41,681 bases of DNA from an uncultured Acidimicrobiia bacterium (lineage in GTDB: Bacteria > Actinomycetota > Acidimicrobiia > Acidimicrobiales > AC-14), in the NCBI GenBank assembly GCA_963836205.1, contig CAWIIV010000002.1, forward strand, positions 1-41,681. The letters run 5' to 3'. Of this stretch, positions 36,036 to 39,131 are shown one piece after another (position 1 is the first letter of the stretch; each line of letters opens with the position of its first letter). The translations under genes and the position numbers were made by a program. The notes beneath the pieces were generated by a model. The model did not search any database and was not told where the DNA came from. It worked only from the letters and a program-made list of their open reading frames with translations.

Positions 36036-39000
36036 ATGACTGACGCCAGCTTTCGAGGTTTGTTCGTTGGCATCGACCGATACGACGACTCCCGGGTGCC
36101 CTGGCTAGCCGGGGCGGCGAGGGACGCGCACGCTCTTCACGCGCTATTCGCCGACACTCTCGGCGAGGCCGCCGCTGGGCTGCTCACCGACGAGGCGGCG
36201 ACCGCCGCCGGGATCCGCGACGAGCTTCAGCGGTTGGCCGATGAGGCGTCTCACGACGACGTCATCGTCGTGACTTATGCGGGCCATGGTTCGGAGGATC
36301 ACCGAATTGTCACCTTTGACGCAGACGTGGACCGCTTGGCGGACACGTGCATCAGCCTCGAGGAGCTGGCGGATCTTGTGGCGGCGATCCCTGGCAGGAC
36401 GCTTCTGTGTGTTCTCGACTCCTGTTTCTCTGGCGGTTTCGGTGCGCGGGTTCTCGCTGGCGGGCTGCGGCCCCGCAAGCTTGGCAACGATCCCGTGGCC
36501 GAGGCACTAGCCCGATTCACTGGCTTCGGTCGGTTGGCGTACACAGCATCGGCAGCGAACGAGGAAGCGCATGAGTCGCCTCGTCATGGGCACGGCCTCC
36601 TCACATTCCGGTTGCTGGAGGCATTACAGGGTGCGCCAGAGATCCTCGACGGCAAGAATCTTAACCTTCTGCGAATGCTTGAGCACGTCACACGCGCGGT
36701 ACAGGCGGACGCCCAGCAGATGGGTCGACAGCAGACACCAACCCTTCGGGGCCAAATTGATGGCGCACCTCTCTGGCCGGTGTTTCGGCCCGGACCTCGC
36801 TACGGCGCGCTGTTCCCCGATCGGGTTCGTCCTGCCGCCACGTCCGATCTCGCCAGCTTGCTTGCGTATGGGTTCACCAAGCCAGTGCTCGAAGCCTGGG
36901 CGGAGAACATCTCCAGCCTAAACGGCCTGCAAGTGAGCGCGATCAACGACTTTGGCCTGCTCGACGGAAACAATCTAGTTGTGACTGCGCCGACCTCCTC
37001 GGGGAAGACGATGATCGGGGAGCTCGTGGCGTTGCAAACGGCCTTGCGACGGGAGCGTTCAATCTTCCTGCTCCCGATGCGGGCGCTGGTCAATGACAAG
37101 TTCGAACAGTTTACCCGAGTCTACGAACCCTCGGGCTTCCGCACGATTCGAGCGACCGGCGAGCACAGCGACGACATTCCAGCGTTGCTGCGCGGCCAGT
37201 TCGACATAGCGCTCCTGACGTACGAGACGTTCTCCAACATAGCGCTCGGAAATCCCCATGTGCTGAGCATGGTTGCCACTGTGGTGATCGATGAAGCACA
37301 GACTCTGACCGACTCGTCACGTGGCTCCAACCTGGAGTTCTTGCTTACGATGCTGAATAACCAACGCGGCCGGACCGGCTCGCCACAGATCATCACCCTG
37401 TCGGCCGTAGTCGGAGACATGCGAGGGTTGGAGCGCTGGCTTGGCGGACGTCGTCTTCATACCGACATACGTCCAGTACCACTGATTGAAGGCGTGCTCG
37501 ACCATAGCGGATCGTACCGTTACGTGGATGAGAGTGGGCATGAGCAGATAGATTCTCAATTTGTCTTGCCGCTATACGACAATGGTAGTCGACGCATCTT
37601 GATCCCGCTCGTACGGCGACTCATGGACGAAGGCAAGAAGGTCATTGTCTTTCGCCAAAGCAAAAGCGAGGCGGTCGCCTGTGCCGTCTATCTCTCACAG
37701 GCCCTCGGCCTTCCTTCCGCCAATCGCGCACTCGAACAACTTGCTGAGGACGATATCTCGACCAGTACCCGCGCACTTCATCGGACCCTGAACGCGGGCG
37801 TAGCGTTCCATAACACCGATCTTGACCGCGACGAGCGACGAGTGGTCGAGGTTGAGTTCCGCGATCCCGACTCGGCGGTCCGGGTCGTCGTGGCGACACC
37901 GACATTGGCGATGGGAGTCAACACTCCAGCCGCAGCCGTTGCCATCGTCGGACTCACACACCCCGGTCGAACGCCAACGCCGTATACCGTCGCCGAGTAC
38001 AAGAATATGGTTGGCCGAGCCGGGCGCCTCGGGCTGGCCGAGCGTGGCGAGTCCTACCTCATACCCGAGGGTGCGCTCGATTCGCACCGGGCTTGGGCCG
38101 GCTACATCAACGGGCGGCTCGAGGATCTTGCGTCACGGCTGGTTCCCGACGGGGATCCCCGTTCACTGATGCTGCGTGTGCTTGCCAGTTATCCGCCCGA
38201 TGCTGTTGGGGTCGTAACTGAGGACGACGTCATCTCGTTCCTCGATTCGAGCTTCGCCGCCTTTCAGGCGCGGGAAGGCGGGAGCGCCCAGTGGAACGAG
38301 CAGCAGCTTCGTCACGGCTTCGAACCACTGATCGCCGCGAGCCTGATCGAGTCGGATGGTGCCGGCTACCGGCTGACGGCGCTCGGTCGGTTTACCGGCG
38401 AGTCGGGTGTCCACGTCGACTCCATCGTTCGTCTAGTGCGTGGGCTGCGTAGCTGTGCGGGCAATCTCAACTCCGTCGGGCTGGTTGCCGCTGCGCAGCT
38501 GACGAACGAGCTGGACGACGTCTTCCTTCCTGTCGACCCCAGAAAGGTGAACACCGAGGTGCCACGCTGGCCCCAGGTGCTGGCTCAGCAGGGTGCGCCG
38601 CATGTTCTCATCCAGGCTCTGCAGCACACGGCAAGCGACCTGAGACAGGCCGTCTCCCGCTCAAAGCGGGGTGCCGCGGCGGCGATGTGGATTGCTGGCG
38701 TTCCGATCGAGACAATCGAGCTCGAACTGACTCGGCACTTGCCTCAGCGGGGTGGTGTTGCCGGCGCCGTCCGTGCCATTGCTGATCGCACCCGGGACCT
38801 CCTTCCTGCGGTCGCCGCCGTCATCGGAGAGTTGGTGCCAGATGCGGCGAACGACGATCTCGTTAGCCGTACGATGCTGCGTCTCGAACTTGGCGTTCCT
38901 GTCGATATCGTCGACCTCGTACGTGCCACTGACGTGCAGCTCGCTCGTCGGCAGTGGCTGGCACTAGTCGAAGCGGGGCTAGCGACGGCTCGTCAGGTCC

Positions 39001-39131
39001 GTGACGCCGATGATGAACAGCTGAGCGCAGTTCTTCGCTCGTCTGCGGCGGCCAAGGAACTCAAGGCCGCGGCAATTCAGGTCGCGGCCGGGTCAATTGA
39101 GGAACTTGTGCTGCCTGTTCCCTCGGAATGA
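36036..39131 (+). CDS. Caspase-like (peptidase C14) domain fused to a Ski2/Hel308-like SF2 helicase
   Basis: LFVGIDRY, YAGHG (His84), LDSCFSG (Cys130), HGLLT..LLEAL, QTP; then APTSSGKT, PMRALVNDK, DEAQ, LSAV, FHNTDL, ATPTLAMGVN, MVGRAGR, winged-helix LTALG, HhH-like C-terminus. Confidence 0.92.
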   Translation: MTDASFRGLFVGIDRYDDSRVPWLAGAARDAHALHALFADTLGEAAAGLLTDEAATAAGIRDELQRLADEASHDDVIVVTYAGHGSEDHRIVTFDADVDRLADTCISLEELADLVAAIPGRTLLCVLDSCFSGGFGARVLAGGLRPRKLGNDPVAEALARFTGFGRLAYTASAANEEAHESPRHGHGLLTFRLLEALQGAPEILDGKNLNLLRMLEHVTRAVQADAQQMGRQQTPTLRGQIDGAPLWPVFRPGPRYGALFPDRVRPAATSDLASLLAYGFTKPVLEAWAENISSLNGLQVSAINDFGLLDGNNLVVTAPTSSGKTMIGELVALQTALRRERSIFLLPMRALVNDKFEQFTRVYEPSGFRTIRATGEHSDDIPALLRGQFDIALLTYETFSNIALGNPHVLSMVATVVIDEAQTLTDSSRGSNLEFLLTMLNNQRGRTGSPQIITLSAVVGDMRGLERWLGGRRLHTDIRPVPLIEGVLDHSGSYRYVDESGHEQIDSQFVLPLYDNGSRRILIPLVRRLMDEGKKVIVFRQSKSEAVACAVYLSQALGLPSANRALEQLAEDDISTSTRALHRTLNAGVAFHNTDLDRDERRVVEVEFRDPDSAVRVVVATPTLAMGVNTPAAAVAIVGLTHPGRTPTPYTVAEYKNMVGRAGRLGLAERGESYLIPEGALDSHRAWAGYINGRLEDLASRLVPDGDPRSLMLRVLASYPPDAVGVVTEDDVISFLDSSFAAFQAREGGSAQWNEQQLRHGFEPLIAASLIESDGAGYRLTALGRFTGESGVHVDSIVRLVRGLRSCAGNLNSVGLVAAAQLTNELDDVFLPVDPRKVNTEVPRWPQVLAQQGAPHVLIQALQHTASDLRQAVSRSKRGAAAAMWIAGVPIETIELELTRHLPQRGGVAGAVRAIADRTRDLLPAVAAVIGELVPDAANDDLVSRTMLRLELGVPVDIVDLVRATDVQLARRQWLALVEAGLATARQVRDADDEQLSAVLRSSAAAKELKAAAIQVAAGSIEELVLPVPSE

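Follow-up and report, generated by a model that had tools for sequence, protein, structure and literature searches.

Helicase-Coupled and Caspase-Type Proteases in Bacterial Immunity

Trypsin-HamAB Hachiman is a bacterial defense locus that couples a superfamily 2 (SF2) helicase of the Ski2/Hel308-like kind to a trypsin-like protease fused to HamA (DUF1837). According to two reports (10.1101/2025.09.03.673762; PMC12799240), ATP holds this protease inactive, and DNA with a 3′ overhang triggers ATP hydrolysis, release, and activation; the substrate is a co-encoded, gated metallo-β-lactamase (MBL) nuclease, HamM. The gene described here lies in a stretch of 41,681 nucleotides (nt), referred to as the window, which is the whole of contig CAWIIV010000002.1 from assembly GCA_963836205.1 of an uncultured Acidimicrobiia bacterium. 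It encodes a fusion of 1031 amino acids (aa) between a caspase-like protease and a Hel308-type helicase. Trypsin-HamAB Hachiman with HamM is its closest precedent, since both couple a Ski2/Hel308-like SF2 helicase to a protease; however, the present protease has a caspase fold and is fused to the helicase itself.

Type IV Thoeris is nearest to the present protein in effector logic. Its protease is likewise a bacterial caspase-fold enzyme and serves as the terminal immune effector; a review (PMC13434031) describes it as promiscuous and Arg-specific, with EF-Tu among the proteins that it cleaves. The Thoeris protease depends on a nucleotide signal made by its TIR gene partner, whereas the present protein carries a fused helicase instead. 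No TIR gene was matched among the window neighbors, and TIR genes lie near some homologs but are not adjacent to them.

The canu (CanABC), caspase-EACC1, and caspase-hydrolase modules use initiator proteases that cut a co-encoded zymogen, which is an MBL nuclease, an EACC1 pore former, or an alpha/beta hydrolase (PMC12799240; 10.1101/2025.11.14.688446). These modules share caspase-like proteases with the present family, but theirs are fused to STAND, TPR, or Ig-like sensors, whereas the sensor candidate here is a helicase. The best caspase-specific NCBIfam model for the present domain, “caspase, EACC1-associated type” (NF047832), scores 79.5 bits and so stays short of its threshold of 140. No EACC1 gene was matched among the window neighbors, and only 119 nt separate the fusion gene from its upstream neighbor.

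Caspase homologs with helicase or DEXDc domains appear in a 2012 census (12 of 671 bacterial sequences; PMC3501461), and a 2020 census likewise notes prokaryotic metacaspases/orthocaspases with helicase accessory domains (PMC7475262). The passages concerned list architectures and contain no family definition, context, function, or link to immunity. A full-text literature search, which extended to neither subscription papers nor supplements, returned census mentions only and no paper defining or testing a caspase-Hel308 fusion. In PADLOC v2 (2023), matches are limited to the helicase core (models HamB, PDC-M23B, and SngC) or to the first 155 residues (the “caspase” model). The best of the HamB models scores 102 bits, again within the helicase core, over residues 299–483 on positions 233–420 of 995.

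Judged by its sequence and gene neighborhood, the protein is a member of neither Hachiman nor canu, the EACC1 modules, or type IV Thoeris. The family is rated as conserved and uncharacterized, and it would fall within helicase-coupled protease immunity as a variant. The most economical reading, which a modest balance of probability favors, is that the protein is a self-contained anti-phage or anti-invader sensor-effector in which the helicase detects aberrant DNA and licenses the protease.

Architecture of the Fusion Protein

The fusion gene is a stop-free frame of 1031 codons plus a stop. Its longest open reading frame (ORF) opens at GTG 36027, but ATG 36036 is the better start because GGAG lies 4 nt upstream and the position coincides with the N-termini of homologs. 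Pfam places Peptidase_C14 (PF00656) at residues 9–237 with 56.9 bits against a cut-off of 21.4, followed by DEAD (PF00270; 79.4 bits) and Helicase_C (PF00271; 36.4 bits), both also over cut-off. One gene is confirmed to encode an N-terminal caspase-like protease and a complete five-domain Hel308-type SF2 helicase. The full-length AlphaFold2 model, built from an alignment of 111 homologs, is compact and confident, with a mean predicted local distance difference test (pLDDT) of 89.8 and a predicted template modeling score (pTM) of 0.85.

An earlier note, made from the letters of the sequence, had described at exactly these coordinates a C14-SF2 helicase fusion of about 1030 aa with an intact His-Cys dyad (YAGHG, LDSC), SF2 helicase motifs, and Hel308-like C-terminal domains, and it had recognized no named system. 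The database, profile, and structural comparisons bear out each of these points, with all three Pfam families found, and the searches of PADLOC and the literature described above agree on the last.

The joining of C14 and helicase domains far exceeds chance expectation, because all three Pfam domains recur together, at a length of about 1030 aa, in 108 of the best 120 database homologs; the remaining 12 are shorter or lack a precomputed C14 call. The source records name the homologs simply as “DEAD/DEAH box helicase,” “caspase family protein,” or “helicase.” Ten residues are invariant in 111 full-length homologs of 47–80% identity: His84, Cys130, Asp30, and Asp128 in the protease, and Lys324, Asp419, Glu420, Gln422, Arg661, and Arg664 in the helicase. 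Both enzymes of the fusion therefore look active.

When the caspase domain alone was used as a query against proteins of 567–1805 aa, PF00656 and helicase domains occurred together in 85 of the 97 proteins found (query counted). Among whole-domain alignments, the weakest fusion protein scores 159 bits and the best protein of another architecture (Ig-like or WD40) scores 73 bits; there is one extra partial match at 84 bits. This gap, together with the 85 fusions, points to a caspase clade that exists only in helicase fusion, and by this sequence measure the fusion is old and exclusive. Against 50%-identity cluster representatives of about 15 billion proteins, the caspase domain matches 75 clusters at E ≤ 1e-30, some of them proteins of roughly 1000 aa and others short fragments from metagenomes.

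Caspase-Like Protease Domain

The protease domain belongs by predicted structure to the caspase-hemoglobinase fold. Modeled alone, it reaches a pLDDT of 90.4, and its best Foldseek matches are the MALT1 paracaspase (E 5.6e-12) and bacterial GSU0716. The other matches include caspases 1/3/6/7/8/9, CED-3, and metacaspases 4 and 9, over a range of E from 5.6e-12 to 1e-9. By sequence profile, the nearest proteins are metacaspase-4 and TbMCA2.

In the family profile alignment, the dyad region matches the metacaspase motifs SGHG and DSCHSGG, as expected of a C14 dyad. His84 falls on the His of SGHG, while Asp128 and Cys130 match the D-S-C of metacaspase-4 and, in TbMCA2, the D-C-(mutated Cys). An inactive pseudo-protease scaffold was considered and rejected because the His84/Cys130 dyad is invariant across homologs. 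Asp30 and Asp128, both invariant, occupy the positions of the Asp in the ND and D-x-C motifs of metacaspases. In TbMCA2 and MALT1, the equivalent Asp residues reportedly form the S1 pocket that receives Arg or Lys.

A loop that follows the catalytic Cys contains the sole weak internal segments of the full-length model, residues 133–135 and 143–150, where pLDDT is below 50; in the domain model, the corresponding segments are 133–136 and 143–149. The loop includes a basic residue, Arg147, that is kept in at least 90% of sequences. A homodimer prediction for the caspase domain (two copies of residues 1–275) gave a score of 0.30 against a mark of 0.42, was run without controls, and is counted neither way.

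Hel308-Type Helicase

The SF2 motifs GKT (Lys324), DEAQ, and GRAGR are intact and invariant in the 111 homologs. The NCBIfam Hel308-type model PRK02362 aligns to residues 290–1013 (model positions 19–704 of 739). The family profile scores 258 bits against archaeal Hel308/Hjm, with residues 302–1010 aligned onto positions 34–699 of 720 in Hjm (2zj2), compared with 211 bits for the Pol-theta helicase domain, about 192 for Brr2, and 106 for Hachiman HamB (8vx9). Foldseek of the full model returns Hel308 2p6r and 9b15 at target-normalized TM scores of 0.88–0.89, and further matches to the helicase part are Hel308 2va8, Hjm 2zj2/5/8, and the human Pol-theta helicase domain. Because TM scores of 0.84–0.89 are normalized to whole archaeal Hel308/Hjm chains, all five Hel308 domains are present.

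These profile scores point to a Hel308-type DNA helicase rather than a HamB. The earlier note had likened it to Ski2-type sensors such as HamB; it is a Ski2/Hel308-like SF2 enzyme, but it is far nearer to Hel308 and Pol-theta than to HamB, and no HamA lies beside the window gene in a Pfam scan of its neighbors. Membership of Hachiman was rejected because that scan matched no HamA gene. Nor is the motor an ortholog of archaeal Hel308, because its scores fall far under the NCBIfam equivalog cut-offs (252 bits versus 887 for NF002654 and 209.6 versus 1200 for NF040935). Unwinding of DNA in the 3′-to-5′ direction would be expected of a Hel308-type motor.

The present helicase shares the five-domain layout and all SF2 motifs with archaeal Hel308/Hjm and the Pol-theta helicase domain. 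Unlike archaeal Hel308, the protein is bacterial, accessory, and plasmid-borne, and it carries an extra caspase domain of 262 aa. The Discussion of Tuck et al. (PMC12278908) states that Hel308 is absent in bacteria.

Table 1. Coordinates of the caspase-Hel308 fusion gene, its domains and catalytic residues, and context features of the window.
Feature	Position	Strand	Evidence or remark
Caspase-Hel308 fusion gene, 1031 aa	36036..39131	+	Open frame; Pfam C14 + DEAD + Helicase_C
Caspase-like domain (clan CD, C14), residues 1–262	36036..36821	+	PF00656; domain model; Foldseek; family profile
Catalytic His84 codon (YAGHG, residues 81–85)	36285..36287	+	Invariant in 111 and in 65 sequences
Catalytic Cys130 codon (LDSC, residues 127–130)	36423..36425	+	Invariant; Asp128 two residues earlier, likewise invariant
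Disordered loop after catalytic Cys, residues 133–150, candidate autoprocessing/regulatory loop	36432..36485	+	Low pLDDT; Arg147
RecA-like domain 1, residues 299–459, Walker A Lys324, motif II DEAQ 419–422	36930..37412	+	PF00270; Lys324/Asp419/Glu420/Gln422 invariant
RecA-like domain 2, residues 531–666, motif VI GRAGR 660–664	37626..38033	+	PF00271; Arg661/Arg664 invariant
Hel308-type C-terminal domains (winged helix, ratchet, helix-hairpin-helix), residues ~700–1013	38133..39074	+	PRK02362; Hjm profile; Foldseek
tRNA-Ser (CGA), left edge of low-GC island	33174..33262	+	ARAGORN; Rfam
DUF6338 gene, 240 aa, hydrophobic N-terminal half	34296..35018	+	PF19865, E 1.6e-19; context gene
Schlafen AlbA_2 gene, 299 aa, upstream neighbor	35009..35908	+	PF04326, E 5.1e-11; context gene
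Downstream neighbor, 353 aa	39491..40552	+	Pfam HTH_Crp_2 and HTH_38 at E ~0.007–0.008, under cut-off
Weak AbiEii-like ORF	40440..41309	+	PF08843 E 4e-4, 20.8 bits vs cut-off 22.5; PADLOC AbiEii E 6e-4

Distribution and Mobility

The fusion gene is accessory, mobile, and horizontally spread. It occurs in four of the 401 genomes of a phylum sample (E ≤ 1e-50, own genome counted), and one of the four copies is a 180-aa fragment. A search of the 40 other genomes closest to the host (seven from the same genus, a further 17 from the same family, and 16 from the same order) did not find it, although several of these are only 66–90% complete.

Full-length copies were located by tblastn on 17 plasmid records, 10 of which are typed as conjugative or mobilizable. 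The plasmid hosts are Bosea, Rhodopseudomonas, Rhizobium, Agrobacterium, Bradyrhizobium, Ralstonia, Hymenobacter, Fibrella, Chondrinema, Acaryochloris, Streptomyces, and a Manganitrophus record; Pseudomonadota, Bacteroidota, Cyanobacteriota, and Actinomycetota are represented among the carriers, in addition to other genera. A search of 50,697 phage records at E 1e-10 returned no match to the fusion protein, and a phage origin is rejected for that collection.

Neighborhoods of Homologs

Flanking genes were compared at 85 loci, which comprise the window, one locus from a contig scan, three from a genome search, and 80 from a scan of metagenomes, where relatives were encoded at 493 of the 599 pattern matches. 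Merging at ≥95% main-protein identity left 76 loci, to which the neighbor counts refer. Flank proteins are the 148 nearest genes of 100–1400 aa (120 first and 28 second neighbors) out of 209 candidates; their ORFs were called by a rule of length and third-codon-position GC rather than by a gene finder, and some of these flank “genes” may be wrong. The family tree covers main proteins of at least 800 aa.

When the flank ORFs of the 76 loci were compared all against all, no universal neighbor emerged, and the largest family occurs at seven. The families listed for the 148 proteins are PDC-S54 (7), Mrr_cat (4), resolvase/recombinase (3), and phage integrase, followed by HipA, TIR_2, N6_N4 methylase, type I S subunits, SMC/AAA, ThiF, S_4TM, CHAT, MvaI/BcnI, and AbiEi. 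Further defense or mobile flanks include type I M subunits, type II/III methylases, a type III res-endonuclease, an AAA/SMC-PHP protein, YgjP, and a LexA-like protein. Large serine recombinases adjoin the fusion gene in five loci, and integrases also occur in the flanks. Annotated plasmid contexts contain TIR, NB-ARC, KAP NTPase, AbiEii, PD-(D/E)XK, and second caspase genes. The two closest homologs, in L001 (74% identity) and L009 (68%), have neighbors that differ from those of the window, namely a divergent AbiEi gene and small unrelated ORFs.

Gap counts use loci with at least 1 kb of flank and exclude L007, where the gene is on the minus strand. By this count, 18 of 58 loci have a gene on the same strand that begins no more than 150 nt past the fusion gene, and the close same-strand genes on either side are heterogeneous in kind.

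PDC-S54, a PADLOC candidate, is present beside the fusion gene in 7 of the 76 loci, either whole or as its N-terminal half, and the paired loci are spread over at least four clades of the family tree. Only the N-terminal half (about 200 aa) is found in L030, L055, L057, and L062, where it lies 5–101 nt upstream on the same strand. The full 417-aa protein is encoded 16 nt upstream in L068 and convergently downstream in L059 and L044. Gaps in L055, L062, and L068 are 5–16 nt. A Bosea plasmid (L090 6385–6990) encodes a 201-aa PDC-S54 homolog that shares 63% identity with the one in L062, and its frame runs into the start of the fusion gene.

Adjacency to PDC-S54 is unlikely to be due to chance because PDC-S54 is rare, with 10 carriers among the 401 genomes of the phylum sample. 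None of these 10 has the fusion gene, and the four genomes with the fusion gene lack PDC-S54; each clearly also occurs without the other. Full-length PDC-S54 has a C-terminal motif resembling a PD-(D/E)xK nuclease. A split match is present in one phylum-sample genome (G086:C15 28491–31228), where positions 2–292 fall in a 639-aa frame and positions 290–407 follow after about 1.5 kb.

In L013, L014, and L019, which form one clade, the gene immediately upstream of the fusion encodes an Mrr_cat nuclease, and L052 has a weak match of this kind; in L062, Mrr_cat is directly downstream. The order in L062 is the PDC-S54 N-terminal half, the fusion gene, and the Mrr_cat nuclease, with gaps of 5 and 14 nt. 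Other, different “caspase family protein” genes occur within a few kb of the fusion gene on the Bosea plasmid (L090 11174–15888) and on a Hymenobacter plasmid (L091 3026–4807), and the Bosea plasmid also has two TIR genes near the fusion gene.

Genes of the kind that partner the described systems were also sought in the flanks. Trypsin-HamAB acts on a co-encoded gated MBL nuclease, whereas the MBL signature HxHxDH occurs in 0 of 567 flanking ORFs here, in a crude motif screen that a degenerate MBL would escape. Neither Lactamase_B nor DUF1837 is among the 25 commonest families listed for the 148 flank proteins (of 99 matched). A small partner of the EACC1 type was considered and rejected as a general feature: a 78-aa ORF lies 12 nt upstream only in the near-identical L048–L053 and L063, has no NCBIfam match, and is absent elsewhere.

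Genomic Island in the Window

A housekeeping block occupies the left part of the window and includes recR, dnaX, the signal recognition particle (SRP) RNA, tRNA-Ser(GGA), a tadA-like deaminase gene, and tRNA-Ser(CGA). GC content drops from about 0.72 to 0.57–0.65 from about 34 kb onward, and homology to one same-genus genome stops at 33260, the end of the tRNA, and to another at 33642. Because the fall in GC and the break in homology lie at or just after tRNA-Ser, the gene is placed in an island inserted at this tRNA. The window ends with the contig, so the island runs past the contig end and its right edge is outside the view; a search for attachment-site repeats found no further copy of the tRNA 3′ end rightward in the window.

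Rfam on 32000–41681 returned nothing but the SRP RNA and a tRNA. The SRP RNA is of the small bacterial type (32367–32466, minus strand, 70.5 bits), and its position beside dnaX confirms the left flank of the island as a conserved housekeeping block. Scans of 33200–41681 found no promoter-like sites and two terminator-like sites, fewer than in shuffled sequence; for a high-GC host, both scans are uninformative. Between tRNA-Ser and the first island gene, there is an 80-nt direct repeat (33791–33870 and 34172–34251) whose two copies are 381 nt apart and share 79% identity. Two 20-nt copies directly after tRNA-Ser(CGA) (33268–33287 and 33291–33310, 95% identical) could be an attachment-site remnant or a terminator-like element. 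For the gene at 1916–2795 of the window, two same-genus genomes have counterparts with 75% identity (L098 8186–9065 and L099 14599–15482); they lie only 2.5–7 kb past tRNA-Ser, which suggests rearrangement or a paralog at the hotspot.

Upstream of the fusion gene on the same strand, the DUF6338 and Schlafen-like genes overlap by 10 nt. The Schlafen-like protein has no PADLOC or NCBIfam match, and its gene has no counterpart beside any other family member in the 76-locus comparison. It may be a defense gene in its own right; bacterial Schlafens are defense nucleases that act against phage (PMC13056530). A second DUF6338 gene (L085 7154–7762, plus strand) lies 236 nt upstream of a distant homolog, which makes two occurrences in all.

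NCBIfam matched no family on the window neighbors. The two downstream ORFs overlap by 113 nt and may represent an AbiE-type pair that has degenerated. The homologs in L001 and on an S. rimosus plasmid have clear AbiEi/AbiEii genes in their flanks.

Proposed Mechanism and Alternative Explanations

As a single-protein sensor-effector, the protein would bind aberrant DNA through its C-terminal Hel308-type motor. Candidate triggers are 3′-tailed or single-stranded DNA, forks, phage replication intermediates, and damage-derived ends. DNA-stimulated ATP hydrolysis would then alter the hold on the N-terminal caspase-like domain or gather several copies on DNA, and the metacaspase/paracaspase-like protease would thereby be turned on. 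It probably cuts after Arg or Lys and may first process its own basic loop. The active protease would cleave host or phage proteins, and growth of the infected cell would stop. In minority lineages, it may also act on co-encoded PDC-S54 or PD-(D/E)xK nucleases. The interpretation in the earlier note, in which a nucleic acid-sensing helicase unlocks or clusters a protease, is partly supported; cleavage of a neighboring effector finds no support as a general rule, given that no neighbor is conserved across the 76 loci.

Specificity for a basic P1 residue is probable because Asp30 and Asp128 match the metacaspase Asp residues with their reported S1-pocket role, and the loop with Arg147 may be a self-cleavage or regulatory site; both steps are read from alignment and model. 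Several points weigh against the sensor-effector reading. PADLOC v2 has no model for the whole protein, and the fusion has thus not emerged there as a defense candidate. In 26 of 50 loci, and in the window itself, a gene on the same strand ends no more than 150 nt before the fusion gene, which leaves room for operonic partners of varied kinds. The earlier note had looked to gene neighborhoods as a check, and the context is of an immune type, with the low-GC island by tRNA-Ser and with defense or mobile genes in the flanks of most loci; some loci have housekeeping flanks (ribonucleotide reductase, QueC, carbamoyl-phosphate synthase, pyrophosphatase). Neighbors are mostly defense or mobile genes, an enrichment that is only qualitative because there is no matched control set of accessory genes.

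In a rather unlikely alternative, which matches the neighboring-effector idea of the earlier note, the protein is the sensor-protease half of a multi-gene Hachiman-like system and unleashes a co-encoded latent effector. The candidates would be the Schlafen-like or DUF6338 gene in the window and PDC-S54 or Mrr-type PD-(D/E)xK nucleases elsewhere. Protease-activated effectors are an established theme in the canu and Hachiman reports cited above (PMC12799240; 10.1101/2025.11.14.688446), and bacterial Schlafens are described as defense nucleases (PMC13056530). The close, same-strand Schlafen-like gene with its overlapping DUF6338 gene, the pairing of a generally rare PDC-S54 with the fusion gene across clades at short gaps, its overlap with the fusion-gene start on the Bosea plasmid, and the adjacent Mrr_cat genes all fit such a system. 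However, no neighbor is common to more than 7 of 76 loci, the closest homologs have other neighbors, and the Schlafen-like gene has no counterpart next to other family members. PDC-S54 and the fusion gene never co-occur in the 401-genome sample, the crude MBL screen is empty, and window neighbors match neither EACC1 nor any other NCBIfam family.

The resemblance of the motor to the repair helicases Hel308/Hjm and Pol-theta raises another possibility: the motor moves 3′ to 5′ on single-stranded DNA and brings the protease to DNA-bound or cross-linked proteins. DNA would then target the protease rather than activate it, for repair of DNA-protein cross-links and stalled forks or for stripping proteins from phage or plasmid DNA. 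A strict, exclusive physical fusion and the packing of both domains in one confident model accord with this idea, as does the position of the window gene a few kb from dnaX and recR. That position, however, is explained by insertion of the island at the adjacent tRNA-Ser. A repair role would predict wider vertical inheritance than is seen in the 40 related genomes, and the neighbors are mainly defense and mobile genes. No prokaryotic repair pathway is known to include a caspase-fold protease. Overall, tracking of this kind is distinctly unlikely. A similarly low probability attaches to a DNA-riding protease: its motor would engage 3′ single-stranded DNA of a replicon that is invading or damaged and move the caspase domain along it, and proteins bound there, such as phage single-strand-binding proteins, recombinases, terminal proteins, or stalled replisomes, would be cut in cis. 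The nucleic acid would then direct immunity or repair in place of a diffusible signal or a dedicated zymogen, and a helicase-guided caspase of this sort would have no described counterpart.

It is very unlikely that the protein serves its carrier element rather than the host, whether by maintaining a plasmid or island, by excluding competing elements, or as an addiction-type module. The plasmid copies, more than half of them on conjugative or mobilizable records, the adjacent large serine recombinases, the integrases and resolvases in the flanks, and ParA genes near the homolog on the Acaryochloris plasmid would all suit such a role. Defense systems typically ride such elements too, so these observations do not separate the two readings, and across the loci the fusion gene shows no consistent association with genes for replication, partition, or transfer.

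Significance

If the sensor-effector reading is true, the family is a one-protein immune device that unites Ski2/Hel308-like genome-integrity sensing, as in Hachiman, with caspase-type killing, as in type IV Thoeris, gasdermin, and canu systems, two themes linked in bacteria only recently. A Hel308-type motor, reportedly absent from bacteria, would have been recruited to bacterial immunity together with a metacaspase-like domain. The family is tractable, being a single gene of about 3.1 kb with obvious catalytic residues, and homologs are available on plasmids of the cultivable genera Streptomyces, Bosea, Rhizobium, Hymenobacter, and Acaryochloris. Its recurrent pairing with the uncharacterized PDC-S54 offers a second testable lead. 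The fusion would also provide a compact model for how DNA sensing leads to caspase activation, which is a central question in eukaryotic cell death as well.

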